From Thermovirgaceae bacterium (GTDB lineage: Bacteria; Synergistota; Synergistia; Synergistales; Thermovirgaceae), in contig JBKHBH010000027.1 in the NCBI GenBank assembly GCA_046542505.1, forward strand, positions 1 through 22,107: a stretch of DNA of 22,107 nt. The letters run 5' to 3'. Position 1 is the first letter of the stretch. Each line of letters begins with the position of its first letter. Positions 535-21,931 of this stretch are shown here, piece after piece. The notes under the pieces were generated by a model that was given only the letters and a program-made list of their open reading frames with translations, had not been told where the DNA came from and searched no databases. The translations under genes were made by a program, and so were the position numbers.

Positions 535-551
535 CCCCGGAACCGGATTCT

Positions 552-1352: not shown

Positions 1353-1486
1353 AACGCTGAATCACCTCTCAGATTAAAAACCGAAAAGGAAAAACATGTA
1401 AATCCTACGGGATTTTACCACGGACTCGGAAAAACAACCGGCTTCGGCGCATGATTTTTACAGTGTAGTGCTAACACGTTTTTTGA

Positions 1487-1996
1487 AAGGATCTGCAGGG
1501 ATCGTTTAGCAGCAGAGCGGGTGCGAAGGTTTACGTCGAAAAATCCCAAAGAATTGGTGGCGACGGAAGGAGGGACGCTCATTTCCGCGTACGTCTCGAC
1601 ACTATCTCCGTGATTGAAGGAATCGCCACAAGAAACGTTGACGGTACTTCCTCGGCATGGGACAGGGTTCCCAACAACGGCATATGGGCGATAGCAGTCG
1701 ACACTGAGGGGAACCTCCGGAACAGGTCTGACGGAAGCGTCCGTTTCGCCGTCGAGGGCAGGACATCTCTCGATTTCTGGGTCGCCGACAACGGTTCGAT
1801 CACTGCCGGATCGACACGCTACGAAGTGATCGTCAGGTTCAATGATGGGACCGCCATGCGGGGAATTGGCGGCCACACCAAATTGAACCTGTGGCTTGCG
1901 GATAACGGAAAGTTCAGTGTGGTACCGGAAAAGTTCGATGTTTTCGTTGTCTTTGAAGACGCCAGGATTCTCAAAAACTCGATAGCGAGGGATTAG
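1487..1996 (+). pseudogene. Probable 5'-truncated remnant of a repeat-domain (beta-rich, possibly secreted) hypothetical protein
   Basis: The frame of ORF 1610-1996 stays open back to TGA1484-1486 with protein-like sequence (KVYVEKSQRIGGDGRRDAHFRVRLD) but no ATG/GTG/TTG there. Internal repeat LDFWVADNG / LNLWLADNG. Confidence 0.5.
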
Positions 1997-2053
1997 CCCT
2001 TCAGCAACAGATCAGCCCTTCTTTCCCGGTGGGCCCGAATCGAGTCCACCTCT

Positions 2054-2965: not shown

Positions 2966-2974
2966 AAGCTTTTT

Positions 2975-3697: not shown

Positions 3698-3730
3698 GCA
3701 TGTCCCCCTTTCACCGGCTCTCGCGACAGG

Positions 3731-3760
3731 TTGTCCCCTTTCCTGAGGTTCCGGTATAAT
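3731..3760 (+). promoter_or_regulatory. Candidate sigma70 promoter (TTGTCC-N18-TATAAT) facing otsA
   Basis: Perfect -10 at 3755-3760 in the AT-rich divergent rpiA/otsA region. A second, palindromic ATTATAAT at 3763-3770 could act as a -10 on either strand. Confidence 0.35.
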
Positions 3761-4050
3761 AGATTATAATAGTTTTGTAATATTCCGATTCCGTTCCATT
3801 GCGGTGGAACCCTTTGAAATTCTACCAGAGTCCGGCAGGGAACGTTTACATATCATTGCTTTTCACCTCTCTTCTCAAATGCTGAAAGCGTTGGCCGGAA
3901 ACGTCATGGCACCGCATCAAGGTTACCCGCCGCATGGCACGGATCTTCCAGGTGTCGTTTCTTGTCCTCCTTTTCGCAAAGCTTTTGACTCTTTCTCTGC
4001 GATCTTCGCACACGAAACAGGCACCTCGACAATGAAAGGAGTGACTTCCT

Positions 4051-5604: not shown

Positions 5605-5618
5605 AGGGAGGAAAACCA

Positions 5619-6845: not shown

Positions 6846-6873
6846 GTCTCGACAATTTTGACAAGCAATTCGC

Positions 6874-6913
6874 AGAGCGTGTGATTTCCAAGGAAATCAC
6901 ACGCTCTTTTTTT
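6874..6913 (+). terminator. Intrinsic terminator after fprA, possibly also serving the convergent yjbQ
   Basis: Perfect 16-bp inverted repeat AGAGCGTGTGATTTCC-AA-GGAAATCACACGCTCT followed by a T run. Confidence 0.85.
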
Positions 6914-6917
6914 GCCT

Positions 6918-7316
6918 TCAGGCTTCATCCACACGCACAAAGACGTTCCTTGTCCTGGGGCCGTCGAACTCGCACAGGAAAATGCCCTGCCAGGTTCCGA
7001 GCAGGAACTTTCCCTCCTCAACCAGAAGTGCCAGATCCGGTCCGACGAGCGTTGCCTTGATGTGAGCCGCAGAGTTTCCCTCCGCATGACCGTAATTGTC
7101 CCCCCAGGGGACGAGCTTTTCCAGGGACATCAGGATGTCAGCTGCCACGTCCGGGTCTGCAGACTCGTTGACGGTAACGGCGGCTGTCGTGTGCGGAACG
7201 AAAATCCGGCAGACACCGAGGCGGACACCCGATTCCGACACGGCGAGAGCTATTTCACGCGTGATATCGACCATCTGTGACCTTGATTTCGTCGATATTT
7301 TCAGGGTCTTGTGCAT
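6918..7316 (-). CDS. yjbQ: YjbQ/UPF0047 family protein
   Basis: HTTAAVTVNE, EGNSAAHIKA and LGTWQGIFLCEFDG. AAGGAGG SD. Confidence 0.92.
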   Translation of the reverse strand: MHKTLKISTKSRSQMVDITREIALAVSESGVRLGVCRIFVPHTTAAVTVNESADPDVAADILMSLEKLVPWGDNYGHAEGNSAAHIKATLVGPDLALLVEEGKFLLGTWQGIFLCEFDGPRTRNVFVRVDEA

Positions 7317-7407
7317 GGATTCGCCTCCTTTCGCCAGGGTCTTGCTTTGACTTCCGTTTCAAGAAGTGTTAGGATTACCTAACTTATAGGATAAGGAGTC
7401 CTTTGCA

Positions 7408-8447
7408 ATGGGAAGCTTTTTCGCCTCAATCTTCCAGGGAGCCTGGTCGCATCGGCGCCGTTCATGCTCTTCGGATTTCTGGCATCGGGCCTTCTCAAAG
7501 TCTTTCTCCCCCGTGATTTCGTCAGAAAACACCTGGGTGAAAGAAAAGTCATGTCCATCTTCAAGGCTGCCCTTCTGGGCGTTCCATTGCCCCTGTGCAG
7601 CTGTTCCGTTCTCCCGGCGGCGGCGGAACTGAAGCGCCAGGGCGCCCGCAGGGGTGCCGTCGGAGCTTTCCTCGTCTCGACACCGGAAAGCGGTATCGAC
7701 TCCATAGCCGTAACCTGGGCCCTCCTTGACCCGATCATGACGGTCCTTCGGCCACTGGCGGCCTTCCTGACAGCGGCCGCGACGGGACTCGGAATCCTCG
7801 CCACGGAAAACGATGACCAGCTCCCGCCGGATCCGTGTCTCCCTGATGAAGCCTGTTCCTGTCACGATCACGAGCACCCGGTTGAGCCAAAGGCATCATT
7901 CGGTTCAAGAATCAGCGACGCCTTCCGGTACGGTTTTCTCGAACTCGTGGAAGACATCGGCCCGTGGTTTGCCGGAGGGGTTCTCCTGGCGGGCGTCCTT
8001 CAGACACTGCTGCCCGCCGATCTCATCCCGAAAACGCTCGGTACGGGCATGCTGTCGATACTGGCGACTCTGGCCGTTTCCGTCCCGCTTTACATCTGTG
8101 CCTCCGCCAGCACGCCTGTTGTCGCTTCCCTGGCCCTGAAGGGCCTTTCCCCGGGGGCGGCTCTGGTCTTCCTTCTTGCGGGGCCGGCCACGAACATCAC
8201 TTCCCTGACGGTGATTGCCGGGATCCTTGGCCGAAAGGCAGCAGCCATCTATCTTGCGACGATTGTTGTATTTTCGGTGTTTCTCGGACTTGCAGCAAAC
8301 TCTTTCTACGAAACATTGGGGCTTGACGCGTCAAGATGGCTTGCAGGCGGCACGAAGGAGTCACCCGGGCTGTTTTCCATTGCATGCGGGATTGTGCTCT
8401 CTGTCTTGCTCCTGCGGGCTGTGGCCCTTCGCTTTCTGTCGCGGTAG
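7408..8447 (+). pseudogene. DUF318/SO_0444-like permease (putative metal efflux), frameshifted near 7447-7449
   Basis: PLPLCSCSVLP, STPESG, YICASAS, LLAGPATN and a Cys/His-rich linker. The SD-supported ATG7408 (MGSFFASIFQGAWS) is out of frame with the main ORF (ASAPFMLFG..., 7464-8447). Confidence 0.65.
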
Positions 8448-8537
8448 CATGGCGTCTCCGGCGGTGGCGGCTTTACAGGCGCCCTGTCTTGCGAAACAAT
8501 TCCCGGGGAGACCCTCAATTCGGAGGAAGGGCCAATC

Positions 8538-9299
8538 ATGCCTGTCTGGCTGGTTTTTCACGGAGACCTCGTCGATCTGCTCAACAAGAACACGGATCCC
8601 GGGTCCGTCAGGGAACTGTTCCGGACGGCCCCCGTCAAGGACCTTGTGGAATCCCAGGGTATCCCCCATACCGAAGCAGGGAGCATCGTCACCGCGGAAG
8701 GAGGCGAAAAAGCCTTTGACTATACACCAGGGTCCGGTGAAACACTTCATGTTTACCCTCACAAGCCTCCCGTGGACGTTACGAAAGGTTCCCTTCTTTT
8801 CCCCCACCCCTTTGGAGAAATCCGTTTCATTGTCGACGTCAACGTCGGGCGTCTCGCAAAACTGCTCAGAATCGCCGGTTTCGACACCCTCTACAACCAG
8901 AAATGGGAGGACAGTGAAATAGCAGAAAAAGCCCGGGAGGAAGAGCGCATCCTCCTCACCAGGGACCGTGAACTTCTCAAGCGGAACGCCGTCATCCGGG
9001 GCCGACTGATCAGGTCACCGGACCCATGGGACCAATTCGGTGAAGTCGTCACCTTCTTCGGACTGCGAGAGAAAATCGACCTGTTCTCCCGATGCCCCAA
9101 ATGCAACGGGCCTTTAAAGACAGTGGACAAGGAGGAAATTATCGATCAACTCGAGCCTTTGACCCGCCTCATGTATGACACCTTTACACGATGCCCCGGG
9201 TGCGGCCAGATCTACTGGTGCGGGTCCCATCACTCCCGCATACGGGAAAAAATGGCCGCTTCGCTGTCAAGAGCCTGCCCTTCTAACGGGAGGCGCTGA
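8538..9299 (+). CDS. Mut7-C RNase domain protein with N-terminal ubiquitin-like domain and C-terminal Zn ribbon
   Basis: VKDLVESQGIPHTE, FIVDVNVGRLAKLLR, RILLTRD, SRCPKCN...CPGCGQIYWCGSH. GGAGG SD. Confidence 0.88.
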   Translation: MPVWLVFHGDLVDLLNKNTDPGSVRELFRTAPVKDLVESQGIPHTEAGSIVTAEGGEKAFDYTPGSGETLHVYPHKPPVDVTKGSLLFPHPFGEIRFIVDVNVGRLAKLLRIAGFDTLYNQKWEDSEIAEKAREEERILLTRDRELLKRNAVIRGRLIRSPDPWDQFGEVVTFFGLREKIDLFSRCPKCNGPLKTVDKEEIIDQLEPLTRLMYDTFTRCPGCGQIYWCGSHHSRIREKMAASLSRACPSNGRR

Positions 9300-10473
9300 C
9301 GCAGGCCCACTTCTCGAGGGTCTCGGCGATGCGTCGCGCTCCTTCGGCAAGCACTTCAGGCTCCCTTACGAGAGCGATCCGGACGAATCCCGTCCCTTTC
9401 GTCCCGAAGGACCGCCCAGGCGTCACCACAACTCCAGCCTCCTTGATGCAGAATTCGGCGAAGGCCATGTCATCGGTGCAGTCGGGCACCTTCGCCCAGA
9501 TGAACATGCTTCCCTGAGGGGGCGTAACGGTCCATCCCTTTTCCGCAGCCGTGTCGATAAAGGCGTCACGCCGCTTTTGGTACATGTCTCGCGTTTTGGC
9601 GATCATCCCGTCCCTGTCGGGATGGGTCAGAGCCCTTATCGCGGCTTTCTGGACGGGCCTGTACAGACCGTAATCGATATTGCTTTTGAGCCTCCGGAGA
9701 CCCTCGATAAAAACCTCGTTCCCCGCCACGAACCCGATCCGCATCCCCGCCATGTTGAAGGTCTTCGAGAAGGAATTCACTTCCACTGCCACGTCACGGG
9801 CGCCTTCGATCTCGAGGACGCTCGGGGGCCTGAACCCGTCGTAGGCAAGTTCGCAATAGGCATTGTCGTAGATGAGCCAGATATCATTCTCCCTGCAGAA
9901 ATTCACGGCCCTTTCCAGTACATACTTTTCGGCGCCGACACCTAACGGGTTGTTTGGATAATTCAATACCATGAGCCTCGCCTTTTTCGCCACGTCACCA
10001 GGAACGCCCGTGAAATCCGGGAGGAACCCCTTGTCCTCTTCCAGCGGCAGATGCCAAGATGTTCCGTCTACCACGGTCGGCATGTAATGGTAAATGGGAT
10101 AACCGGGATTAGGCAGAATGCAGAGGTCACCCTTTTCCATGGCCACCAGCGGGAAATGGGCGAATCCTTCCTGGGATCCCCACAGGGGGAGGATTTCCGT
10201 CTCGGGGCCAAGGGGCACTCCGAACCTTTCCCCGTACCATTTCGCTATGGCTACGGGAAGTTCCGGATCGATAAAGGGATATTCGTAGGAGCGGTCTTCT
10301 TGGGCCGCTTCAAGGACCGCCTCCAGAACGGGGCCTTCCGGCCGGCGGTTCGGGCTGCCGACACCGAGGTTGATGATCTTTTTGCCCGTCTTCCGGGCTT
10401 CTGCAATCCATCCCTGCAGGAGGCTGAAAATTCCTTCCTCCCCTTCACGCACACGGTTGGCAATGTATGGCAT
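9283..10473 (-). CDS. Class I/II PLP aminotransferase (LL-DAP aminotransferase/MtnE/AlaC-like)
   Basis: NLGVGSP, GSQEG, PGYPIY, LNYPNNP, DNAY, SFSKTFNMAGMRIG. AAGGAGG SD places the start at ATG10473 (MPYIA). Confidence 0.88.
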   Translation of the reverse strand: MPYIANRVREGEEGIFSLLQGWIAEARKTGKKIINLGVGSPNRRPEGPVLEAVLEAAQEDRSYEYPFIDPELPVAIAKWYGERFGVPLGPETEILPLWGSQEGFAHFPLVAMEKGDLCILPNPGYPIYHYMPTVVDGTSWHLPLEEDKGFLPDFTGVPGDVAKKARLMVLNYPNNPLGVGAEKYVLERAVNFCRENDIWLIYDNAYCELAYDGFRPPSVLEIEGARDVAVEVNSFSKTFNMAGMRIGFVAGNEVFIEGLRRLKSNIDYGLYRPVQKAAIRALTHPDRDGMIAKTRDMYQKRRDAFIDTAAEKGWTVTPPQGSMFIWAKVPDCTDDMAFAEFCIKEAGVVVTPGRSFGTKGTGFVRIALVREPEVLAEGARRIAETLEKWACVSASR

Positions 10474-10734
10474 CGCTTTTACTCCTCCTTTTGGAAATAC
10501 GCCGGCTGCATCGGTCAAGCACTCACTCAAAAACCTCTGTCGAAATTGTCACCACGATTTTTAGAGTAACACTCCTTTGGTCGCTGGAAAAGCAGGAGGA
10601 TCCTTTACATCCTTCCCATCGACCGTTTTCGGTTTTTTCGGAGCCTCCCCCGGGAAGTGAAGGTTTTCCTTTCACCGGTTGAAACCGCTCCCGGACTGGT
10701 TCCGTGACTCTCAGACCGCTATTATTCCAAAGCC

Positions 10735-10899
10735 TCAGGCAATGAAAGAAACCATGATTTTCGTGTCGCGGCAGAAATTGCTGGCGGTCTTGCGAAAGAG
10801 GCGCCCCAGGGTTTCGCGACTGACCGTCAGGTAAACCGCGGGCTGTTGGAGATCAGGTCCCGAACTGCATCTGCTCCCGTCGGGAAGCAGCGAGGGCAA
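10735..10899 (-). pseudogene. Possible Crp/Fnr-type HTH remnant
   Basis: Short frame reading LQQPAVYLTVSRETLGRLFRK resembles the Crp/Fnr HTH pattern (ELAxYLGVSRETLSR). Confidence 0.3.
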
Positions 10900-11052
10900 G
10901 TCTCAAAGAATCGAAAGGAGCAGCCAGGCAAAATGAAGGGAGGGTTCCCGGAGACACCTTGCCATCCTGGGCCCTCCCTTGAAGTAAAGACACACTTTCC
11001 CCACAGGACGATGTGTCGTCGATAGCCATGCGCTTTGCACTATGCGCGTGGT

Positions 11053-12045
11053 TCAGTCTGCCACATCTCTTTCGCTCAATATCTTTCTCAGCACGGGATA
11101 ATCGATGTTGCCTCCGGAAATGACAACACCCGTTTTCCTCCCCAGGGATTTCATCTTTCCCGAAAGGAGGGCACCAACACCGACAGCTCCGGCACCTTCG
11201 ACAACCTGGTGATGCTCGCGGTGCAGGAAGGCTATCGCGCTTTCTATATCCTCTTCGGTGATCTCGCACATGCCGCTCACCCTTTGCTTCGCGAGGGAAA
11301 GCACAGGCTGCGTAATCCCGCCGGAAAGACCGTCGGCAATCGTTTCCCCGTATTCCACTTTCTTTACTACGCCTTCCTTCCAGGAGGCGACCCACGGATT
11401 CGACGTTTCTGACTGTACCCCGTAGATCTGTGAATCGGGATTCAGGGCTTTCGCGGCAATGGCCACGCCGTTCAAAAGCCCTCCGCCACCGGCAGGTACA
11501 AGGACCAGGTCCAGATCGGGTTCATCAAGGAACATCTCTAAAGCCAGGGTCCCCTGCCCCGCGATGACGGCGGGATCCTCAAAGGATGAGACATAGGTTT
11601 TCCCCTTTTTTTCTGCGTACCGATGCGCAGCCTCTTCGGTATCGTCATAGTTTCCGTCCACGATGTGCAACTGGACAAAGCTGCCCCCACGCCGGTTGAT
11701 CGCTTCTTTTTTTGTTTCGGGACAATCCCTGGGGACAAAGATCTCGGCCACCACCCCAAGCTCACTCGCGGCGACCGCGACGCCCTGGGCATGATTGCCG
11801 CTGGAACAGGTGACAACCCCCCTGTTTCGCTCGTGTTCACTCAGGCAGTTCACTTTATAGAGAGCGCCGCGAACCTTGAAAGCGCCGCACATCTGCTGGT
11901 TTTCAAGCTTCAGGTAGACGGGGCCGCCGGCGATTTCACTCAGTTTGTCGGAATACAGTAAGGGCGTATGCCATACCTTGTTTCGAAGAAACCGGTACGC
12001 CCTGACCACGTCTTTTACCGTCGGGTTAAGAGCTTTCTCTCCCAT
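11053..12045 (-). CDS. Fold-type II PLP threonine/serine dehydratase or racemase family enzyme, without ACT domain
   Basis: TPL, LKLENQQMCGAFKVRGA, SSGNHAQG, GQGT, GGGGL, TIADGL, SGGN. GGGGGTG SD places the start at ATG12045. Confidence 0.88.
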   Translation of the reverse strand: MGEKALNPTVKDVVRAYRFLRNKVWHTPLLYSDKLSEIAGGPVYLKLENQQMCGAFKVRGALYKVNCLSEHERNRGVVTCSSGNHAQGVAVAASELGVVAEIFVPRDCPETKKEAINRRGGSFVQLHIVDGNYDDTEEAAHRYAEKKGKTYVSSFEDPAVIAGQGTLALEMFLDEPDLDLVLVPAGGGGLLNGVAIAAKALNPDSQIYGVQSETSNPWVASWKEGVVKKVEYGETIADGLSGGITQPVLSLAKQRVSGMCEITEEDIESAIAFLHREHHQVVEGAGAVGVGALLSGKMKSLGRKTGVVISGGNIDYPVLRKILSERDVAD

Positions 12046-12124
12046 TTCACACCCCCGTGTATGGTATGTGACCGGGTGCCGACCCCGGTGTTCGCTGCTG
12101 GTTTTTTCGCAGGACACCCCGTTT

Positions 12125-12338
12125 CTAGAACAGGTTCAGGATGTGCCCCTCGTCGTCCACGCCGATGGCCTCCGCAGCGGGCTTGGCAGCCCGGGCATGG
12201 TCATGATGGACCCTCAGATAGGCACGTTGAAACCGGCCCCCGTCGACGGAGGGATTCCCCGGATACCTCCACTTTCTTCGCAATCCCACCGATGGGCTCC
12301 ATCTTCGCTCTCTGCGCTATCTCGATGTCCGACAGCAT
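12125..12338 (-). pseudogene. fhs: Formate--tetrahydrofolate ligase relic with a large internal deletion
   Basis: N-terminus MLSDIEIAQRAKMEPI is joined out of frame to the C-terminus STGAGFNVPI*GSIMTMPGLP / KPAAEAIGVDDEGHILNLF*. Both ends match known Fhs termini. Confidence 0.9.
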
Positions 12339-12466: not shown

Positions 12467-13465
12467 CTAGATTTTTACATCCAGAACATGCAGCCTGGAC
12501 TTTGAAAAAAGGATGGGAATCTCTTTCGGCTCCCGTTTTTCCCTGATGAAAACCCCGAGGTTGCCGCCGGATCGGCGTCTCTGGCCGAATGGGATGTATT
12601 GAACCTGCGACCCTTTGACGAGATCGAAACGTATCCAATCTCCCGACTCATCCTTGAAAAAACCTTTTGCCCTCACAACATCGGCGGGCAATTGTCCCAT
12701 AAGGCTGCGAAAATCCTCAGGGGTCCCTTCCCAGCAAATACATTGGGCAAGAAGCGCATCGGGAGGCGCAAGGTGAGCCTCCGGATCCTGCAATGCGGAA
12801 TCGATGTAGCTCTCTATGTCTTCCTCTGCAGGCACTTCACCTGGGTTTTCCCGGACGCCGGCGGAACTGCCCGATTTCAGCAAATCCCATGGGATCCTGC
12901 CGAAAGACGTTTCGTATATGCGCGCAGTGTCATTGAGGCCGGTGATTTCCAGCCGAAGTTTCTGCATCTTCCTTTTGTTCACAAGGTCTCGCTTGTTGAT
13001 GATGATCACAGTCGCTGTATGAGTCTGCCTGGAAACGGCGTTGAAGTGGTCCGCCCATTCGCTGAAATGCTCGGCATCGACTACACAAATGCTGTCGGCC
13101 AATGCGTAGAAGCGTCCGAGAGGACCTATGGAGAGATCCCGCTCAATATCACTGGTATCGGCTATGCCGCTCGCCTCAATCAGAAGGATCGACGGTTTCC
13201 ACTCGCGCGCAATGGAGTAAAGCCCTCTCATGAAATCACCCTTGGCGCACGCGCAAAAAATCGACCCCTGGTTGATTTCAAGTATCTCGAGACCTTCCCT
13301 GTAAGAGATTTCTCCATCCACGCCAATCCGGCCGAACTCGTTCATCAGGACGCCAAGGGTTTCGTCTTCCGGACGGGTTTCCAGAAGGTGGAGCAACATC
13401 GTTGTTTTGCCGCTGCCCAAAAATCCCGAAATCAAAAAAACCCTGCATTTGCCTGAACTGGCCAT
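12467..13465 (-). CDS. CobW/COG0523 family metallochaperone GTPase
   Basis: GFLGSGKTT, NEFG, GSIFCAC, IEASG, NKRD and a C-terminal VVRAKG. The start at ATG13465 avoids overlap with the upstream gene and has an SD. Confidence 0.88.
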   Translation of the reverse strand: MASSGKCRVFLISGFLGSGKTTMLLHLLETRPEDETLGVLMNEFGRIGVDGEISYREGLEILEINQGSIFCACAKGDFMRGLYSIAREWKPSILLIEASGIADTSDIERDLSIGPLGRFYALADSICVVDAEHFSEWADHFNAVSRQTHTATVIIINKRDLVNKRKMQKLRLEITGLNDTARIYETSFGRIPWDLLKSGSSAGVRENPGEVPAEEDIESYIDSALQDPEAHLAPPDALLAQCICWEGTPEDFRSLMGQLPADVVRAKGFFKDESGDWIRFDLVKGSQVQYIPFGQRRRSGGNLGVFIREKREPKEIPILFSKSRLHVLDVKI

Positions 13466-13521
13466 TCCCCCCTGTCCTCCTTTTCGCGAGACGGCTCCGG
13501 GAACAATCATTTCCTGCCCGT

Positions 13522-15123
13522 TCAAAAGAGCATGGCTTTCATGAAACGTTTTTGAAAATCCCTCAATGTCGACAGTTCGATGTAACGCATCTTCCGGGCC
13601 ACTGAATGCGTCGTCTCCCAAAACGGAGCCGAGGCAAGGGCCGCAACTGCACCACGGCCGGCGGCGTTGCGGACACCGCGGATTTTACTCAGGGGAACGG
13701 GAGGCAAAAGACCTACCCTGACGGCGCTTTCCTGATCGATATAGTTGCCGAAGGCCCCTGCGAGCAGCACCTCGTCGACGTCATCAAGAGCTAGGTCCGC
13801 ACGTTCGAGAAGCACTTCGATTCCCACCTTGACTGCACCCAGGGCAAGCTGGACCTCACGGACATCCTTCTGTGTGATGTAAACCGGCTTTTCGCCCTCT
13901 GCCAAAAGGATGCGGAGAATCCCATCGGGTCCCCGGTCCATGCGTTCGCGAATCCAGGGATCATCACATTCTTCGGGATAGACCATTCTCCCCTTCCGGT
14001 CGACGATGCCGTCCTCGAGAAGCACGGCCACCGCGTCAACCAGCCCGGAACCGCAAATCCCTCTGGCTGGTGCATCTTCAATGGTCTCGACGACCAGGCG
14101 GTCCTCGTCCCGGTAGACTTTCTCGATCGCGCCCGCGGCGGCTCTCATGCCGGATCCTATGCGGGCCCCTTCAAAGGCCGGTCCGGCAGCGGTGGCACAG
14201 CAGTATATCGCTTCACTGGAGCCCAATACGATTTCATTGTTTGTCCCCGTATCTACAAAAAGACGAACAGCCGCAGAGTCGGCGATCCCTGTCACGGAAA
14301 CACCGGAAACGATATCGGCGCCCACATACCCGGCCACGTTCGGCAGAAACTTGATTTGTCCTTCCGGGTGGATTTTCATTCCAAAAGGAGCTGCTGCCTG
14401 AGGAGGTAGAGAGAGGAAATTCGGCTTGTAGGGGCTGACACCAATACTTTCGGGGGAAACACCTGCGAGAAGATGTTCCATCACGGTGTTTCCCACGATA
14501 GCCACCTGGTATATATCCTGGACACCCAGTCCGTTTCGCGAGGCCATTTCCTCCAACCGCTGGTTCATCCCCTCAACCAGCACTTTCTGCAACCGCCGCA
14601 GGCCATCTTCCGAAGACGCAAAGGAAATTCTTGAAATGACGTCGTCCCCGTAGGTGATTTGAGGATTCAAGAACGAAATGCTATCGATGAGATGGTATCG
14701 TTCAAGGTCCAGAAGATAGGCGACAACAGTGGTTGTGCCAATGTCAAAGGCAGCTCCGTAACCCTTCGAGTCGGGTTCCCAAAAAAGCTCTTCCTCGGAA
14801 ATTTTGGAGAGAATCTTTGAACTTTTCCCGTCGACTTCGTCCAGAACGAGTATTTCCCCGTCTCCGGAAATCCTGGCCATGCAGGCAAGGCGTATTCCCT
14901 CGTTGAGCACTTCTTCTCCCAGAACCTTCTTTTCCGTCTCGGCAGGAGGTCCGACACATCTTCTGGCCTTGACGCGGCACTTTCCGCAAATTCCGGACCC
15001 GCCGCAAGGGCGGGCTATCTGGACTCCCCCTCTTGCAGCCGCTTCATGGACTGTCTCACCACCTTGCGCATCGACGGTGATGCCTGAAGGTTTGAAGGTG
15101 ATTTTGAAGGATTTTTCGCTCAT
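13522..15123 (-). CDS. ASKHA-family reductive activator of corrinoid proteins (RACo/RamA-like) with N-terminal [2Fe-2S] domain
   Basis: CGGSGICGKC...RLAC, DIGTTT, DTGTNNE, AAGPAFEG, GICGSGL, LAGAFG. Confidence 0.92.
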   Translation of the reverse strand: MSEKSFKITFKPSGITVDAQGGETVHEAAARGGVQIARPCGGSGICGKCRVKARRCVGPPAETEKKVLGEEVLNEGIRLACMARISGDGEILVLDEVDGKSSKILSKISEEELFWEPDSKGYGAAFDIGTTTVVAYLLDLERYHLIDSISFLNPQITYGDDVISRISFASSEDGLRRLQKVLVEGMNQRLEEMASRNGLGVQDIYQVAIVGNTVMEHLLAGVSPESIGVSPYKPNFLSLPPQAAAPFGMKIHPEGQIKFLPNVAGYVGADIVSGVSVTGIADSAAVRLFVDTGTNNEIVLGSSEAIYCCATAAGPAFEGARIGSGMRAAAGAIEKVYRDEDRLVVETIEDAPARGICGSGLVDAVAVLLEDGIVDRKGRMVYPEECDDPWIRERMDRGPDGILRILLAEGEKPVYITQKDVREVQLALGAVKVGIEVLLERADLALDDVDEVLLAGAFGNYIDQESAVRVGLLPPVPLSKIRGVRNAAGRGAVAALASAPFWETTHSVARKMRYIELSTLRDFQKRFMKAMLF

Positions 15124-15145
15124 CGACGTCCCTTCCTTAATGTTC

Positions 15146-15187
15146 CACCCCGCCGCAGGGTTTTTGTTGTTTTCCCCGGGCGGGGTG
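15146..15187. other. Intergenic stem-loop between the MT2 and activator genes
   Basis: 9-bp perfect arms CACCCCGCC / GGCGGGGTG with extra imperfect inner pairing. Confidence 0.55.
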
Positions 15188-15204
15188 AATGACTTTCTCG
15201 AGCT

Positions 15205-16584
15205 TTACTCGAGCCTTTTGTCTATTTCTTTCATCAGTTCTTCCGGAGTCGGGACGATATTGTCAAAGACCACTTCGTTGTTTATGAGCATCGTGGGGAG
15301 TGTAGACACACCCAGAGCCTTGGTCCGCATGATGCCTGCCGCGCTTTTGATGAGGGACTCGCGCCATGCGAGTTTGTCGCCATAATGAGGCGCAACCTCG
15401 GCGACGGCCTCACACATGTACTGACAGGGCGCACACCCCTCGGAATCGAGAGTGACGATCTCCACGAACACCTTGCCAGGTTCGATTTCCACATCTTCCA
15501 GCACATCGCCCGACTCTTGTGCATGAGCCAGGGCATCTTCAAGGGAAAGAAATCCCTGGGTTTCCGACGGCTCTTCTCCCATCGTTGCATAACGTCCCAC
15601 AGCTTCGAGATTGTACACGGGAGTGTCGAAGGGAAGGTCGCAGCCCGGAGAAAGAATGTAGCCTTTCCTGCCGCCCGTCTCAATGCGATGCCGGGCATCC
15701 TCCACGCATTCTTTGGGCGAACCGAAGAGCAAAGTAGTTGTCAAGGGGATGTTTCCTTCAAAGGCGACCTTGTACTTGTGGGCAAGGTCTTTGACGAAAT
15801 TCAGATCTACCTGTTCGTCAAAAGCGATAGCATGGGGCTTCGACTGCATCATCAATTCGATGTTCTTCGTAGCGTTGCCGCAGCAGAAAAGGGTCACAAT
15901 GCCACCCTTGTTGTTGACTTCATCTATCACAGGTTTGACGTAAGGAGTCACGAAGGTCTCGAAATGCCTGGGGGAAATCTGGCTTGTCATGGGGTCGACA
16001 ACTGCCACCACGTGAGCACCCGTTTCCATGTACCATTCGCCCATGCGCCGCGTAATCTCTGAACAGAATTCGAGCACTTCCTTGGCTTCTTCGGGCTTTT
16101 TCACCATGTCCATAATAAAGGCCGACCCCCTGAGATGGAGGGCCAGTGTGAAAGGACCGCAGCAAAGACCGAAAACAGCCGTTTCATCCCCGATCTCCTT
16201 TACGAGGCGCCTCGTTGCCTCAAACATCAGGGGAAGACGACCACCCTCTTTGGTAAATTCCGGAAGATCCGTGACTGATTTTGATTTGTCGGCCAGAACA
16301 TGACCGACAACAGACGGAGGATTGTTTTTTGCCCAGCGAAGTTCGCAGCCCAAAACCTCCGCTTCGACCTGAAGATCAAAAGTAGAGCAAACGCCATCGG
16401 CGCAATAGCGTTCTGCAGCCTTTTCCACACCCTCGACAAGTACTTCGGGATCCCTGAGCAGCGTTGCTGCATCGGTGTCCACCAGCCTTGCAACATGCAC
16501 TCCCGTAAAGGGCACCCAGGGCACCCTGTCTACATCCTGAAATTGAAGGGCGCGAAGCACTCTCTCTTTTCCCGTCATCATCAT
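15205..16584 (-). CDS. UroD/MtbA/MtaA-family methylcorrinoid methyltransferase (MT2) fused to a C-terminal thioredoxin-like CxxC domain
   Basis: MTGKERV..AL, DLQVEAEVLGC, GPFTLA, VDPMTSQISP, GNIP, ILSPGCDLP. The C-terminal part reads VEIVTLDSEGCAPCQYM...LGVSTLPTMLIN. Confidence 0.85.
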   Translation of the reverse strand: MMMTGKERVLRALQFQDVDRVPWVPFTGVHVARLVDTDAATLLRDPEVLVEGVEKAAERYCADGVCSTFDLQVEAEVLGCELRWAKNNPPSVVGHVLADKSKSVTDLPEFTKEGGRLPLMFEATRRLVKEIGDETAVFGLCCGPFTLALHLRGSAFIMDMVKKPEEAKEVLEFCSEITRRMGEWYMETGAHVVAVVDPMTSQISPRHFETFVTPYVKPVIDEVNNKGGIVTLFCCGNATKNIELMMQSKPHAIAFDEQVDLNFVKDLAHKYKVAFEGNIPLTTTLLFGSPKECVEDARHRIETGGRKGYILSPGCDLPFDTPVYNLEAVGRYATMGEEPSETQGFLSLEDALAHAQESGDVLEDVEIEPGKVFVEIVTLDSEGCAPCQYMCEAVAEVAPHYGDKLAWRESLIKSAAGIMRTKALGVSTLPTMLINNEVVFDNIVPTPEELMKEIDKRLE

Positions 16585-16608
16585 ATGTTCTCACCCAGTG
16601 TCGTATTC

Positions 16609-16655
16609 GAACGACATGAAAGGGCGCCCTGTTATGGCCCCCTTTCATGTCGTTC
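16609..16655. other. Long intergenic stem-loop downstream of the mtmB-like gene
   Basis: 20-bp arms with one mismatch (GAACGACATGAAAGGGCGCC / GGCCCCCTTTCATGTCGTTC), 7-nt loop, no U-tract on the coding (minus) strand. Confidence 0.75.
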
Positions 16656-16683
16656 TTTCAGCTAGACTTTCCACGGCGAATTT

Positions 16684-18075
16684 CTAATAGGGAAATTCGA
16701 CTCCCATCTTGTTGAGTTCCTCTTTCATGCGATAGTACTGATCAAGATATTCCTGGCGTGGGATCAAGCGTTCCATATCGTAGACGTCCTGGATCGTTTT
16801 TCCGTAATTGTCTGTGGGGATAAGGGACTCATATTTTTCCATGATCTTCTGGCACACTTCTTCAGCCTTGGCCCTGTCGAGACGCATCTTGAAGGAAGCT
16901 TCGGAACACTCGTGGTAGAACCGTGATTCAAGCGGCGTCGCGTGGTCGGTGTACTTGTTGCGGCAAGTTGCGGCACCCCAGGGGTTACCTCCGGAACTCT
17001 CCGTCGCGAGGGCGTGGTTGGCGCATTCCCAGTAAAGTTGATCTGTTCCGGGACCCGCATTTGCGAAGAGGTTGTTGAGGTAGATGAGGTTGGAGTTTCT
17101 GGACATGGCCTGGCTCAACATGCTCTGGATCCAGAGAAGCGCCCTGGTCGTCGTCGACTGCCATTTGAGGTGGAAGGGGAAGTTGAGCGCCCAGTTTGAA
17201 CCGTAGAGGCAGGCCCCCTGGATGTTGTAGGCCGTCTGGAGAACCGCCGTTGCCTCGGTGCCACCCGCGTGGCCGCCGAAAATCGCGCCGCAGAGGTTCC
17301 CGAAAACATTGCCGTAGGAGCGGTAATGAAGCGACTTGTTCAGCATTGCGTCGTTGGTCGTCATCTCCGTGAGAATGGAAACCATGCGTCCGTCAAGATG
17401 GGACTGGCGCACACCCCAGGCCGGGTTTGCCGCAGCTATCTGGGCCTGGTCGGTCTCGGCGGTTCCAACGGAAACGGTCCAGACGTCGGGTTTTCCGACA
17501 AGGCGCTGTGCGTCCCTGAGATTCATGGCATGTTCCATGGCCGCCGCCACTTCGGTGGGGCTCTGCGATGTAGCCTTGCGGCCCATAAAATCCTCGATCA
17601 AGGGTGCGCAGAGACCGTCAAGCATCGGCTCTTTCAGATAGGCCATGCAGGCTTTCTTGTGAATATCGGTGCTGAAGTTCGCATCTGGGCTGAAAAGATG
17701 GAAGGGGCGTTTCTCCTTGTCTTCCACGGACCGAACCTGCAGCCAGCGCTGGTCGTGGCCTGCACCGACCATGTAACTCGGTTGTTTCGTGTAAAGCACT
17801 TCATCAACCTCGGACTCGGTGAATTTCATCACCCTGTGATGGTCGGCGTGATAGACACCAACGGAGATGAAGAAATCTTTTGCAGCCGCCCAGAGCCTGT
17901 CGGCAAGGTCATCGTCGCAGTTAACGATCGTTTTGCCGTCCCACTTGATGTCGTGCTCCTTGACGACCCTTCTCATTTCGGGAATGAATGACTTCATCAT
18001 CCATTCATTCTGATTCCTGTAAAACGGTCCATCTTCTACCTTGGAGAAGACCTCCCACATTCTAAACGTAGACAT
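16684..18075 (-). CDS. mtmB: MtmB-family (monomethylamine:corrinoid methyltransferase-like) protein lacking pyrrolysine
   Basis: 463 aa with MtmB-like segments VNCDDDLADRLW.AA, RVMKFTESEV, SPTE, GKP, GG.AGG.E, AGPGT, TPLESRF and YD...L.P.QEY. No internal TAG. Adjacent to the corrinoid protein gene. Confidence 0.85.
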   Translation of the reverse strand: MSTFRMWEVFSKVEDGPFYRNQNEWMMKSFIPEMRRVVKEHDIKWDGKTIVNCDDDLADRLWAAAKDFFISVGVYHADHHRVMKFTESEVDEVLYTKQPSYMVGAGHDQRWLQVRSVEDKEKRPFHLFSPDANFSTDIHKKACMAYLKEPMLDGLCAPLIEDFMGRKATSQSPTEVAAAMEHAMNLRDAQRLVGKPDVWTVSVGTAETDQAQIAAANPAWGVRQSHLDGRMVSILTEMTTNDAMLNKSLHYRSYGNVFGNLCGAIFGGHAGGTEATAVLQTAYNIQGACLYGSNWALNFPFHLKWQSTTTRALLWIQSMLSQAMSRNSNLIYLNNLFANAGPGTDQLYWECANHALATESSGGNPWGAATCRNKYTDHATPLESRFYHECSEASFKMRLDRAKAEEVCQKIMEKYESLIPTDNYGKTIQDVYDMERLIPRQEYLDQYYRMKEELNKMGVEFPY

Positions 18076-18140
18076 GTTGACACCCTCCTTATTTTTGCTG
18101 GGGAAAATTCATTACACAGTTGCCCACTGAGCCTGACCCG

Positions 18141-18773
18141 CTAGCGGTTCAGAGCAGCCTTCAGCTTGTCGACGAATTCGAAGGCGTCAAAAGACCAGAT
18201 ATCGGCACCTATTCTTTCGGACCATTCCGGTGATGTCGGGGCTCCACCGATGCAAACAAGGTATTTGTCCTTCTCCCCTGCCTCGGCGAGAAGTTTGATG
18301 AACTCTTCCTGATTCGGCATAGTCGTCGTCATCAGGGCCGAAAGGCCGACGGCCTCGGCGTTGTTCTTTTTTGCCTGCTCCATGTATTCAACGGGATCCA
18401 CGTCGACGCCCAGGTCGACGACATTGAATCCGTGTGCCTGAAGCATGATCCCGACGATATTCTTTCCTATTTCATGGTAGTCACCCTTGACGGTTCCGAT
18501 GACGACCGTTGCCGGGACCTTGTCAGTCTCCCTTGCGACAAGATGCTCCTTGAGGACATCCATGATCTGCATGAAGGTATCTCCCGCAACCATGAGGTCC
18601 GGAAGGAACACCTCGAAGTTCTCGAACTTCTCACCCAGTATTGCCATTTCTTCCGTCAAGCCGTCCATGATCTCATGGGGATCCGTTCCTTTATCGATCA
18701 TTTCCTGGACAAGTGAGCTGGCGCTTTCCCCTTCCCCTTCGATCAGGTACTGACGAACTTTTTCAATAGACAT
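18141..18773 (-). CDS. Cognate corrinoid protein (MtmC/MttC-like)
   Basis: Cap-domain motif FLPDL, B12-binding GDYHEIGKNIV (DxHxxG), SALMTTT, IGGAP. AAGGAGG SD places the start at ATG18773. Confidence 0.93.
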   Translation of the reverse strand: MSIEKVRQYLIEGEGESASSLVQEMIDKGTDPHEIMDGLTEEMAILGEKFENFEVFLPDLMVAGDTFMQIMDVLKEHLVARETDKVPATVVIGTVKGDYHEIGKNIVGIMLQAHGFNVVDLGVDVDPVEYMEQAKKNNAEAVGLSALMTTTMPNQEEFIKLLAEAGEKDKYLVCIGGAPTSPEWSERIGADIWSFDAFEFVDKLKAALNR

Positions 18774-18820
18774 TCTGACACCCTCCTTGATGGGATTATT
18801 TGCGTATCCTATGAGGGAAC

Positions 18821-18849
18821 TATATAGGGCGCCGGTCAAAGGAGTGCAA
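18821..18849 (-). promoter_or_regulatory. Candidate sigma70 promoter of the methyltransferase operon (TTGCAC-N17-TATATA)
   Basis: Minus-strand hexamers at 18844-18849 and 18821-18826 with a 17-nt spacer, about 48 nt upstream of the corrinoid gene start. Confidence 0.45.
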
Positions 18850-18876
18850 AAACCTTCTTTTCTGATGTGAGATTCT

Positions 18877-18955
18877 CGAAAAAAGGGATGATCCCGTTAA
18901 TGGGGTTTTTTGCGAAATGGCAGTGAACGAAAGGGGGAAATCCCCGTTATCGGGG
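18877..18955. repeat. Imperfect direct repeat pair, candidate activator binding sites
   Basis: AAAGGGATGATCCCGTTAATGGGG and AAAGGGGGAAATCCCCGTTATCGGGG. The CCCGTTA cores at 18893 and 18943 are 50 bp apart. Confidence 0.55.
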
Positions 18956-18973
18956 CTATGCAGCCTGAAGGAT

Positions 18974-21931
18974 TCACTGGACCCAGCCCACCCGACTGCG
19001 CAGTTCGTCCACCTTTTTTCTGTAATACGCTTCATTCTGTCCCAATACGGCTGAAGCAAAATCGTCGGGGATGGATGTTTTGAGACTGGAGAGTTCCGCC
19101 TTCGCCCAGTAATATATGGCCAGCCAGGTCGGGCGTTTCGCCTGTGCCACCAGCCGTTCCGTCACTTCGAAATATTCTCGGCTTTTGGCCCAATCTTCCT
19201 CAAGACCTGTGATGAGCCCCAGAAGACTGAAGGCTATGCCGCCGCCCTGAAGCCCTCCGTCCTGTTCCGAGTTCCGCTGGAAATAAAAAGCTTCGAGACG
19301 GCGGAGCATCATCTTGGCTTCATCGTATCGTTCAAGAAGACAGAGAGAATAACCGGCCTTTGCCAGGGAAAGGCCCATGCCCCGGTGAATGCCCAGCGAT
19401 TCACCCATCTGGACGCAGTTTTCGTAAAAGGCCAGAGCTCCTTCCGTGTCGCCCTGCGTCAGGTGGAGGTCCCCTCGAAAATGTTCCGCAGCGATAAGGG
19501 GCAAGGTGTATCCGGGCCCCTGTTCCTCCAGTTTTTCAAATATTTTTGTCGACATCCGGAGCAGTTTCGATGCCTCATCGGGCCGATCTTCCATGATCCG
19601 GGCGATGGCAAGAAACCGGAGAGCCGTTCCCAGGGGAACGTATAGCCTGTGGCCGAGGGCAAGACGATACATTTCACGAGCAAAAGGAAAGAGCCTGGCC
19701 ACATCGTCTGTCTGTATGGCCAGGTAGCAGAGCTGTCGAAGGACATCCACCTGCTCTGCGGCACTTGCTTTTCTGGCCCGCCGATATGCCTCGGTAAGTG
19801 TTTCAAGGGCTTCCTCATATTGCCCGTTCCACCAGAGGTGCGCTCCTTCCAGGACGAGGAGCTCGCGTTCAAGGGCATTGTATTCCGGTGTGTGTCCGAG
19901 CCTGCGGATCTGCTTGTCGAGAAGCGAACGCACCTCTGATATTGAATATTCAGTGAAGTCCGTGTCTTCAGCCATGGGAACATGGAGTTCCAGCTCCTGA
20001 TCCGTCAACGAAGGAAAAACTTCATGGGAAGCCTTGAAATGAACCTTCAATTCCCTGATACGCCAGTAGATCTCTTTATAGTAAAGTCCTCCCCTGCGAC
20101 AGAGGTCTGCTATTCTGGCGAAAGTGAGGCGGTTTTCTTCGCCTTCAGGGCAAAGATTCTCGAGGACTTCAACGGCCTTTTCGGTCAACGCCGCCCGTCT
20201 GGTGAACTGCATCCGTTCCAGCAGAGCCTCTCTGATCTTGGGGTGGGAGAAATAATAGAGGACGTCACCGTCATCAGAAGGGTGCTCCCGCACAAGCCCC
20301 TGCAATTCGACCTGTTCGAGCCTGGTTGAGACGTCAATTTTCGAGAGGCCGAGAAGGCCCGTCACCTGGGAGAGTGTCGCCGGTTCCGGAAAGACAGCGA
20401 GACCTTCGAGGAAGAGCCTGTCTTCACCGTCCAGCATTTCGATCCTGGCCTCGAAAAGATTGGATGTAAGGGCTGATCCGGGCTCATTCCCGACACCCGC
20501 TTCAGGCTCATCCTCTGAAGGAATCAGCAGTTGCTTGATGAAATACGGGGTCCCCTGGGTCTGGCTGTAGACTTCAGCGACACGCTGCTCATTCCAGACC
20601 AGATCGGGACGAAGGTGCCTGCAGATCTGTCCTGTTTGCTCAAGGTTGAATCTTTTGAGATGGATTTCCAGTGTTTCGATCGGCTCTCCCGAGATTTCCG
20701 TCCGCAGCATAAAGGTCGATCGCACTTCCTGGTAGCCGGAAATCAGAAGTTTTCGGGAAAAGGATTCGTTCCAGATGATGGATTCGAGAATCATCCAGGA
20801 GGCCTTGTCCATCCACTGGATGTTTTCGACCACGAGGATCCGCTGATCCTCCGGGCCCCTGGAGGCAAGATGCTCGAGGATACGTTCCGCCACCCGGAAG
20901 TATGTCAGTTCCGTGGGAGTGACCTTTTCACTTTCCTGGGGAATCCCGCAGCCGAGTCTCCGCAGCAGATGCAAAAACGGGGCCATTGGGCGTTCCATCT
21001 CTTCCTGGTAGCACCTGACTCTCAGACAGGTCCAGCCGTCATTTCCCAACCGGCTTGCGACCTCTTCGACAAGGGTTCCCTTGCCTATTCCCTCTTCGCC
21101 CCAGACAAAACCACAGAGCGACTGGTTTGAGTCCTTTGCACAGCTGAAAAAATCCAGAAGCCGGAGGACTTCGGTATTTCTCAAAAGGGGGTTGTCTTCG
21201 GCGAGCCTTTTCCTGATTTCCGACCCCTTGACCCGACGGCGTGATCCCTCGGCGGACAGGACCTCCTCCAGACCGGACTGAACTCCAAGGTCTTCTTCGA
21301 CTCGCCGCGAGAAGTCACGTGCCACGCGGACAGCATCGATCTTTCGGTCCGCCTTGATGTAAAGGTGGGCAAGCTCACCGTGAATATCCTCATCATAAGG
21401 CTCAAGGTCCGCCAGTTTTTCGAAACACCTGACAGCATCCCGGAACCCCCTGTCGTCTCCCTGGTTTCGCATGAAGCCAGCCCGTTTTTTGATCCCTTCG
21501 GCGAGCATCTTGCGATACCTGCCGCGGCGGTCATGGAGCCATTCGTTGAAAACGGGCCAATCATCAAGTTCGGGCAGGTCCAGGTAGGGTTTGCAAAGAG
21601 ATTCGAGGTCTTCCCAGGAGAGGATCTCCACCTCTCGCAAAAGATCCAGGTCTTTCGCGATCTTTACGTTCGGGTCCAGGCCGATGGATCTTCCACGGGA
21701 AATGAAAACGGGCGCAAGGTTGCGGATTGCGCTGAGGGCATTGCTGAGGTTCCGTCGTCCCGCCTCGGTCGTCTTGTCCCCCCAGAGAAGGGAACTGATG
21801 CGATCACGGTGCATGGTCCCTTCCTCGACCAGCATAAGGGCAAGTATACGAGCCTTCAGAAAGGGAAAGGATATTTCTTCCTGGTCCGCAAAAAAAGCGG
21901 GAGAACCCAGAAACCTCGCCATATATCTCAT
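18974..21931 (-). CDS. Large SARP/AfsR-like transcriptional regulator (wHTH + BTAD + STAND-type ATPase + TPR-like region)
   Basis: RDRISSLLWGD...RRNLSNAL, LEPYDEDIH, Walker A GEEGIGKG, Walker B ILVVENIQWMD, YYFSHPKIRE and helical C-terminal repeats. Confidence 0.85.
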   Translation of the reverse strand: MRYMARFLGSPAFFADQEEISFPFLKARILALMLVEEGTMHRDRISSLLWGDKTTEAGRRNLSNALSAIRNLAPVFISRGRSIGLDPNVKIAKDLDLLREVEILSWEDLESLCKPYLDLPELDDWPVFNEWLHDRRGRYRKMLAEGIKKRAGFMRNQGDDRGFRDAVRCFEKLADLEPYDEDIHGELAHLYIKADRKIDAVRVARDFSRRVEEDLGVQSGLEEVLSAEGSRRRVKGSEIRKRLAEDNPLLRNTEVLRLLDFFSCAKDSNQSLCGFVWGEEGIGKGTLVEEVASRLGNDGWTCLRVRCYQEEMERPMAPFLHLLRRLGCGIPQESEKVTPTELTYFRVAERILEHLASRGPEDQRILVVENIQWMDKASWMILESIIWNESFSRKLLISGYQEVRSTFMLRTEISGEPIETLEIHLKRFNLEQTGQICRHLRPDLVWNEQRVAEVYSQTQGTPYFIKQLLIPSEDEPEAGVGNEPGSALTSNLFEARIEMLDGEDRLFLEGLAVFPEPATLSQVTGLLGLSKIDVSTRLEQVELQGLVREHPSDDGDVLYYFSHPKIREALLERMQFTRRAALTEKAVEVLENLCPEGEENRLTFARIADLCRRGGLYYKEIYWRIRELKVHFKASHEVFPSLTDQELELHVPMAEDTDFTEYSISEVRSLLDKQIRRLGHTPEYNALERELLVLEGAHLWWNGQYEEALETLTEAYRRARKASAAEQVDVLRQLCYLAIQTDDVARLFPFAREMYRLALGHRLYVPLGTALRFLAIARIMEDRPDEASKLLRMSTKIFEKLEEQGPGYTLPLIAAEHFRGDLHLTQGDTEGALAFYENCVQMGESLGIHRGMGLSLAKAGYSLCLLERYDEAKMMLRRLEAFYFQRNSEQDGGLQGGGIAFSLLGLITGLEEDWAKSREYFEVTERLVAQAKRPTWLAIYYWAKAELSSLKTSIPDDFASAVLGQNEAYYRKKVDELRSRVGWVQ

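Follow-up and report, generated by a model that had tools for sequence, protein, structure and literature searches.

Among the described corrinoid-dependent demethylation systems, those closest to the locus reported here are the MtmB/MtmC/MtbA/RamA methylamine:coenzyme M (CoM) system of Methanosarcina barkeri, the betaine:tetrahydrofolate (THF) systems (MtgABC), the type 1 mlp clusters, and the split methionine synthase MtgBCDE of Ruegeria pomeroyi, for which homocysteine can be the methyl acceptor (PMC12478193). The only pyrrolysine (Pyl)-free MtmB with shown activity is MtqB of Methanococcoides methylutens Q3c, which transfers the methyl group of an N-methyl compound to its cognate corrinoid protein (PMC13044021). 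Here we analyze a 22,107-nucleotide stretch of DNA (the window) from a Thermovirgaceae bacterium of the phylum Synergistota, an anaerobe that ferments amino acids. The window is one entire contig (C62) of an assembly that is 93.5% complete and almost certainly carries a corrinoid methyl-transfer module. The module is a real, conserved, and co-regulated variant of the corrinoid methyltransferase systems with an unstudied acceptor enzyme. Our overall reading, that this Synergistota B12 module demethylates a methylated histidine and passes the methyl group to a thiol without folate, comes near to an even chance without quite reaching it.

The module consists of six co-oriented open reading frames (ORFs) on the minus strand, separated from the regulator gene onward by 200, 65, 99, 81, and 56 nt. 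The ORFs and their Pfam domains bear out the gene list of the original prediction, which had named a SARP/STAND regulator and an activator with an N-terminal [2Fe-2S] domain as in bacterial RACo (Fer2 and the RACo middle and C-terminal domains were found). In the feature list below, related loci are those of other Synergistota genomes.

18974..21931, minus strand: regulator with BTAD (SARP-like), STAND ATPase, and TPR parts, 985 aa (Pfam BTAD, AAA_16, TPR); orthologue in 21 of 26 related loci
18838..18851, minus strand: operator-like motif TTTTGCA-N4-TTT, conserved upstream of the corrinoid gene and present in 20 of 23 regions
18141..18773, minus strand: corrinoid (B12-binding) methyl carrier protein, 210 aa (PF02310 and PF02607); MtbC/MtgC-like below cut-offs
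16684..18075, minus strand: Pyl-free MtmB-family methyltransferase, 463 aa (PF05369, E 2e-76); aligns to 1L2Q
15205..16584, minus strand: MtaA/UroD-family methyltransferase fused to a CxxC thioredoxin-like domain (MtaA-Trx), 459 aa (PF01208 and PF13192)
13522..15123, minus strand: RACo-type ATP-dependent corrinoid reductive activator with N-terminal [2Fe-2S] domain, 533 aa (PF00111, PF17651, PF14574)
12467..13465, minus strand: CobW/COG0523 GTPase with an F-C-x-C motif, 332 aa (PF02492)
12125..12338, minus strand: remnant of fhs (formate-tetrahydrofolate ligase), found by blastn to the intact copy on contig C102

The MtmB-family protein matches M. barkeri MtmB (1L2Q; E 6e-49) from end to end and scores 257.9 bits, full length, against PF05369 (cut-off 25), which places it in this superfamily. 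No amber codon is present in its gene, and Val201 (GTT) stands at the column of Pyl202, so that it is not a Pyl-dependent monomethylamine methyltransferase. Moreover, Glu205, Glu229, and Glu259 of 1L2Q, which we take to be active-site residues of MtmB, align to Gly204, Met231, and Leu261. It is highly probable that MtmB serves as the donor side and MtaA-Trx as the acceptor side, in line with what had been predicted for a bacterial corrinoid methyl-transfer module. Two other loci touch on this family. At L042 (6696-12907), in a Synergistota genome, an MtmB gene with an in-frame TAG precedes genes resembling pylS, B, C, and D and probably forms a pyrrolysine system with them, and at L043 (8363-11936), a distant Pyl-free MtmB (24% identity) with a corrinoid gene and a xanthine/uracil permease lies among purine-degradation-like genes and could be a methylpurine demethylase.

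The MtaA-Trx protein was modeled with AlphaFold2 (pLDDT 87.7, pTM 0.87), and the top Foldseek match of the model is Methanosarcina mazei MtaA (4AY7; rmsd of 2.0 over 337 columns), which shows a UroD-type barrel, while its NCBIfam scores stay below the cut-offs of the MtbA (160 of 600), MtaA (156 of 400), and TIGR01463 (189 of 235) models. The His-x-Cys...Cys zinc site is replaced by F233-C234-C235 and C315, and Phe stands for the zinc-binding His in every fused and split MtaA-Trx homologue aligned. A weak Thioredoxin_3 match, just below the cut-off, covers residues 381-452 with C384-x-x-C387, and domains of this kind occur fused or standalone in several phyla. In 13 of 16 split homologues, a TGA occupies the C315 column with homology continuing (two keep Cys and one is cut by a contig end), where two of the 13 are identical and all lie on short metagenome contigs (L075, L084, L086, L088, L090, L093, L096, L100, L101, L103, L104, L109, and L122); the window gene itself has Cys, not TGA, at this third cysteine. 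The thioredoxin domain of the TGA-bearing loci is a separate gene, often accompanied by a second thioredoxin-like ORF. These split MtaA-like genes are a candidate selenoprotein family with a predicted selenocysteine at the third Cys, and the available part of a 2026 selenoproteome review is silent on MtaA, UroD, and uroporphyrin (PMC13188914).

Matches to MtaA-Trx were found in 29 of 268 genomes, with up to five copies per genome. Because MttB and a corrinoid gene were present in 14 of 20 further MtaA-Trx loci that were fetched, MtaA-Trx appears as a constant partner of different donor enzymes. In these loci (L125-L144), most of the up to five paralogues per genome are accompanied by MttB, a corrinoid gene, and BCCT, TRAP, or sodium:solute transporters, and they are putative, as yet unstudied N-demethylation modules. 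The reference set used for the 20 loci held no pterin-binding protein, and the PF00809 genome search covered 5 of their 12 genomes.

Conservation of the gene neighborhood, a check that the original prediction had proposed, was confirmed, as the module is syntenic in other Synergistota genomes. Of 268 Synergistota genomes, 34 have an MtmB match at E 1e-20 or better, and in 27 of these, the source genome among them, the identity is at least 83%; plasmids gave no MtmB match. Our tally of related loci, made by hand, comprises 26 non-duplicate loci, with L017 (a 69% paralogue) and four duplicate loci excluded. The corrinoid gene lies directly upstream of mtmB in all 26, and these loci further contain NhaC (23), RACo (22), the regulator (21), a gene for a protein resembling the activation domain of MetH (21), MtaA-Trx (19; 4 others carry an unfused His-x-Cys UroD gene in its place, and 3, of which two stop at a contig edge, have neither), a racemase-like gene (13), CobW (12), an M20 peptidase (6), a molybdenum (Mo) enzyme (5), and hutH (2). 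The activation-domain gene has no Pfam match of its own; its profile picks up Thermotoga methionine synthase 1J6R (E 5e-6), and a homologue from a marine locus scores against Met_synt_B12, while VP35 matches to the profile (E 0.15 or worse) were set aside as chance. Close homologues of MtmB are named from cultured Synergistes jonesii and Acetomicrobium mobile, and those of MtaA-Trx from cultured Cloacibacillus porcorum and C. evryensis. An RNA run that contained 6% of the words gave only short contigs of a relative at about 90% identity, covering mtmB, the corrinoid gene, and the regulator, from which co-transcription cannot be inferred.

The description of the cluster as complete and self-contained did not hold, as the cluster is longer on both sides in the closest relatives: cobW is followed there by nhaC, a Mo enzyme gene, and intact fhs, and the regulator gene is preceded by hutH, the activation-domain gene, and another UroD gene. 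The latter three genes are all on contig C42 in the source genome, away from the cluster; orthologues of the transporter (best match 34-38%) and of the Mo enzyme (best match 26-28%) were not found in this 93.5% complete assembly. The fhs remnant after cobW joins the first 90 nt of the gene to the last ~123 nt (93% and 90% identity to the intact C102 copy) across an internal deletion of ~1.45 kb, and it marks the site where relatives hold nhaC, the Mo enzyme, and intact fhs: the gene order in L001 is cobW-nhaC-Mo-fhs, and in L151 fhs is followed by a threonine-dehydratase-like gene, matching the window. The window copy is an eroded, incomplete version of the conserved module. A broken MtmB, a partial match with one TAA, lies in a cluster of the 69% type (L040, G266:C63:65323-65979), L009 likewise stops after mtmB, and the module decays in several lineages.

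Gene context makes a methylated histidine the reasonably likely donor. A metagenome scan was run with an alignment of 26 more distant MtmB homologues (41-52% identical to the window protein), and counts were made on the 76 loci with a near-full-length mtmB among the best 80 of 335. Fourteen of these have hutH, hutU, or hutP within 8 kb (19 when HutC-like regulators are added), and a quick, midpoint-rooted tree of MtmB distributes these hut neighborhoods over six or more branches; HutC-like regulators were counted at 12, MttB at 24, the Mo enzyme at 8, and a homocysteine methyltransferase domain at 7, where it replaces MtaA-Trx as it also does in L038. As a control, none of the 20 MtaA-Trx loci without MtmB has hutH, hutU, or hutP. 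While hutH is present in all 19 genomes of the window's family, a second, cluster-type hutH (93-100% identity) is found in three of them, exactly the three module carriers of the window's genus, and three other family genomes have a different second hutH (47-49%). The cluster-type hutH retains the Ala-Ser-Gly triad. Its closest grouping is with the housekeeping copy and not with the hutH neighbors of marine MtmBs, so that the two were probably recruited separately.

A second link to histidine comes from the Mo enzyme, a Mo-bis(pyranopterin guanine dinucleotide) (Mo-bisPGD) protein found in 11 of 268 Synergistota genomes, all 11 of which are MtmB positive, and located in or directly beside the cluster in five related loci. 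Seven Mo enzymes are encoded next to marine MtmBs, and the Synergistota enzyme shares 47-52% identity with six of them and 34% with the seventh, compared with 23-26% for other Mo enzymes. Its best solved-structure match is acetylene hydratase, which is also the reported match of the ergothioneine synthase MES (PMC9516567). The Mo module (L145-L148, L154, and L155) comprises an NADH oxidoreductase, an Fe-S subunit, the Mo-bisPGD enzyme, NhaC, an amidohydrolase, and cofactor genes, occurs in MtmB carriers only, and is a candidate thiohistidine desulfurase. The hut neighbors, the confined extra hutH, and the carrier-only Mo enzyme suggest a histidine derivative.

As to the form of this histidine, the M20 peptidase is closest to HmrA and human Xaa-Arg dipeptidase, and the pyridoxal phosphate-dependent racemase-like gene at 13 of 26 loci, whose best match is a broad-specificity amino-acid racemase, encodes an enzyme type that needs a free alpha-amine. 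Ring-methylated histidine, most likely ring-N-methylhistidine, is favored because the dipeptidase is co-regulated and MttB is absent in the genus, and we give it a chance somewhat short of even; an alpha-N-methylated histidine is unlikely, although hercynine is favored in some lineages because MttB and BCCT lie beside the Mo module. A second MtmB paralogue (66-68%) with its own transporters, regulator, and M20 peptidase (the latter in L029) occurs at L029 (1380-7848) and L036 (4367-7984) and may take the other methylhistidine isomer. S-Methylmethionine as the donor was ranked low: stand-alone homocysteine methyltransferases lie ~4-12 kb from three clusters, but the wider context is histidine linked.

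A thiol is the probable acceptor, again by gene context. As the original prediction had noted, neither a pterin-binding methyltransferase nor a transporter is found inside the cluster, and the search for a THF methylase was negative for the window, whose contig ends 176 nt beyond the regulator, and for the rest of the assembly. Among 29 MtmB-positive genomes, no stand-alone AcsE-type gene was detected, the PF00809 matches being FolP-like or embedded in MetH apart from three weak partial ones. The source genome has no match for MetF, the MetH homocysteine domain, MtrH, MetE, ComA, or CdhD; MetF is likewise absent from two carriers of its genus, and the MetH homocysteine domain was found in none of six genomes of the genus, an absence that is weak given incomplete genomes, one of them a single contig. 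No full CdhD was found in the five genomes tested. A 335-aa frame at G185:C25:20820-21176 matches only the C-terminal part of CdhD (E 4e-15) and might be HgcA-like. Methanogen-type use of CoM was rejected, as no ComA match was obtained in five carrier genomes, in which other CoM routes were not searched. An MtaA-like domain, that of CmuA, is reported to methylate bisulfide, and sulfide and homocysteine are indistinguishable as acceptors in our data. Whereas the original prediction had left both donor and acceptor unknown, the gene context thus narrows them to a likely methylated histidine and a likely thiol.

Our results lead us to propose the following sequence of steps. The NhaC transporter, missing in the source genome, would import the amino acid. 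In relatives from the gut, YfcC and the M20 dipeptidase, which are co-regulated with the module, might take up and cleave a dipeptide (anserine or balenine, for example) to release it, and in other relatives the linked Mo enzyme might strip the sulfur from a thiohistidine such as ovothiol. RACo, possibly aided by the activation-domain protein (encoded on C42 in the source genome), would hold the corrinoid protein at Co(I), and Pyl-free MtmB would transfer the N-methyl group to cobalt, freeing histidine for fermentation by HutH, HutU, and Fhs. The MtaA-Trx enzyme, its metal loaded by CobW, would then transfer the methyl group from cobalt to a thiol via C235, C315, and the thioredoxin CxxC, the simplest acceptors being sulfide, yielding methanethiol, or homocysteine, yielding methionine. 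A bolder version is unlikely as a whole: in anaerobes, Pyl-free MtmB would take the methyl group off the imidazole ring of methylhistidine, whether this derives from anserine, balenine, muscle protein, or Mo-desulfurized ovothiol, and the widespread His-less MtaA-Trx family, selenoproteins in some lineages, would be a general folate-free sink that converts the N-methyl groups of many MtmB and MttB donors to methanethiol.

Several observations weigh against the demethylation of methylhistidine to a thiol. Only two of the 26 Synergistota loci, both from one genus, have hutH within ~10 kb, and 62 of the 76 metagenome loci, many of them short, have no hutH, hutU, or hutP; the locus counts include kin and are not independent. 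Because a long branch (1.08) separates the Synergistota MtmB clade from the marine sequences with hut neighbors, its substrate may differ from theirs, and because the transporter and the Mo enzyme are missing from the source genome, the module may be decaying there. N-tau-methylhistidine can also be degraded without demethylation, via a Hut-like route. On the acceptor side, 23 of the 29 carrier genomes encode MetF and 26 a homocysteine methyltransferase domain, and so folate or MetH routes are open in those carriers. The sole characterized Pyl-free MtmB acts on choline and tetramethylammonium (PMC13044021), and MtaA-Trx, lacking the zinc-binding His, fails the His-Cys-Cys rule for S-methyltransferases (PMC10418091).

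It is unlikely, though conceivable, that the methyl group comes from a different basic amino acid, such as N-epsilon-methyllysine, methylarginine, or methylornithine, and that the histidine link is confined to distant relatives. The long branch to the hut-linked clades would fit this, and the transporters and the dipeptidase suit any basic amino acid: NhaC gives a score with the model of the arginine/ornithine antiporter ArcD, the annotation of YfcC is that of an antiporter for basic amino acids, and the M20 dipeptidase is of the Xaa-Arg type. However, the extra hutH is confined to the three carriers in the genus, the Mo enzyme family is shared with the hut-linked marine loci, and no lysine or arginine catabolic gene recurs among the neighbors. 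A role in ending the breakdown of ergothioneine or hercynine, in which the Mo enzyme would remove the sulfur, MttB the alpha-N-methyl groups of the betaine, and MtmB the last alpha-N-methyl group, is decidedly unlikely. MttB adjoins MtmB in 24 of 76 metagenome loci, twice in some, the Mo module of L145 and L147 has MttB and a betaine transporter of the BCCT type on its flanks, and MES, which acts on trimethylhistidine (PMC9516567), has short motifs in common with the Mo enzyme as judged by eye; yet MttB is absent from the source genome and two carriers of its genus, and the co-regulated dipeptidase is ill-suited to an alpha-N-methyl substrate. We regard as highly improbable a reversed polarity or S/Se-methyl chemistry, in which MtaA-Trx would take the methyl group from methanethiol or methylselenide in sulfur, selenium, or methionine salvage. 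The mlp clusters, for which such chemistry has been proposed, are a precedent (PMC10418091), and the source genome has tRNA-Sec, SahH, and a methionine-gamma-lyase-like gene, but MtaA-Trx is a constant partner of varied MttB and MtmB proteins with varied transporters, which fits a common acceptor step, and most loci hold just one Mlp-like gene. The least probable of all is transfer to THF, through MtaA-Trx as a new kind of THF methylase or through MetH in trans: fhs lies directly downstream in the closest relatives, metF-metH just upstream in L026, and MetF is frequent among carriers, but histidine breakdown accounts for fhs, which is deleted at the window locus, and the absences of MetF, of the MetH homocysteine domain, and of full CdhD given above argue against such a route.

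The shared regulation, which takes in the YfcC-M20 operon, also speaks for the demethylation of methylhistidine. Of 23 regions examined, 20 have the motif TTTTGCA-N4-TTT at a distance of ~75-105 nt upstream of the corrinoid start (1000 shuffles: mean 0.05, max 1), a count that is partly circular, the pattern having been picked by eye from the same 23 regions. Its recurrence before other genes is an independent check: it precedes the regulator gene in several loci and the YfcC-M20 operon in six of six genomes having that operon, and it lies between the activation-domain gene and the second UroD gene, including on C42 of the source genome. There are nine matches in the source genome, and of 65 matches in 1.25 Mb of loci, ~60 by our own reading belong to the clusters or to one of the three other positions just named. 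SARP regulators use an 11-bp direct-repeat operator before the -10 box. In most relatives the motif shows an 11-bp repeat period, and in the window it stands 13 nt before a TATAGT -10-like box at 18824-18819, with an inverted half-site starting at 18913; a sigma-70 scan did not list a promoter before the corrinoid gene. The BTAD domain scores 26.7 bits (cut-off 22.1), and judging from the conserved upstream motif, the BTAD protein may bind TTTTGCA-N4-TTT and likely activates the module. A GGG...CCC repeat in the window promoter was dropped, as it is not conserved in 23 other regions.

With regard to the remaining genes, the RACo product has the [2Fe-2S] plus ASKHA architecture of RACo/AcsV activators and scores 404 bits against the AcsV model and 120 bits against the RamA model, both below cut-off. 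The CobW protein is a G3E GTPase with a Cys motif (PF02492, 122.6 bits) belonging to COG0523, and named equivalog cut-offs were not reached; C71 and C73 are invariant among 11 homologues, and its start is most likely ATG 13465, as the alternative TTG at 13621 would overlap the RACo gene. Since cobW also adjoins MtaA-Trx genes without MtmB, this co-occurrence suggests that CobW is the metal chaperone for MtaA-Trx. Beyond the cluster (9283-12048) come a threonine/serine dehydratase-like gene and a class I aminotransferase gene, in the same order as in L151, which has one extra gene between them. The rest of the window (1-9299) holds ordinary genes (PfpI, a CooC/ParA-like ATPase, EamA, RpiA, trehalose-6-phosphate synthase, a flavodiiron protein, UPF0047, and a Mut7-C RNase) and a permease-like ORF at 7464-8447, and no RNA family was found in the window with Rfam.

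If our reading is true, the large Pyl-free MtmB family gains a second function, and an anaerobic fate is found for methylhistidines, biomarkers that abound in the diet and in the turnover of muscle. It would also name the missing acceptor enzyme of many bacterial MtmB and MttB clusters without a THF methyltransferase, a family with an altered metal site and a predicted selenocysteine, and would account for the way in which amino-acid fermenters that are not acetogens get rid of N-methyl groups, perhaps in the form of methanethiol.

The original prediction had called the pathway possibly undescribed. No characterized orthologous cluster and no description of corrinoid methylhistidine demethylation was found in the literature, where one in subscription journals or preprint supplements could be missed, although MtaA-like clusters without a THF methylase are known as a kind (PMC10418091). 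The type 1 mlp clusters, for which thiol/selenol chemistry has been proposed (Kountz and Balskus, PMC10418091), are alike in combining an MtaA-like gene, a corrinoid protein, and RACo without a THF methylase; they require at least two co-oriented Mlps with His-Cys-Cys, whereas the window has one MtaA-like gene with Phe-Cys-Cys plus MtmB. The second UroD gene of the source genome is on C42, and L001 has two with the regulator between them; C. evryensis is listed as having a type 1 mlp cluster (PMC10418091), which we could not link to the present one. MtqB, compared by description only, differs in its choline and tetramethylammonium substrates, its CoM acceptor, and its clade, reported to branch near Pyl MtmBs (PMC13044021).

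The methylamine:CoM system of M. barkeri resembles the module in having an MtmB-family donor-side methyltransferase (MT1), a small corrinoid protein, an MtaA-family acceptor-side methyltransferase (MT2), and an ATP-dependent activator, whereas the window has no pyrrolysine, a bacterial RACo, an MT2 with a thioredoxin domain and without the zinc-binding His, and no ComA match. With MtgABC and MtgBCDE the module shares N-demethylation via a free corrinoid protein and an activation-domain gene; unlike these, its MT1 belongs to the MtmB and not the MttB family, and a pterin-binding or MtrH-type MT2 was not found. Finally, the Mo enzyme of the related loci and MES are both acetylene-hydratase-like Mo/W-bisPGD proteins, and MES acts on a histidine derivative (PMC9516567). 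In contrast to MES, the Mo enzyme has no fused cysteine desulfurase, and in several loci it is adjoined by genes for an Fe-S subunit and an NADH oxidoreductase, neighbors that would suit a reductive direction.

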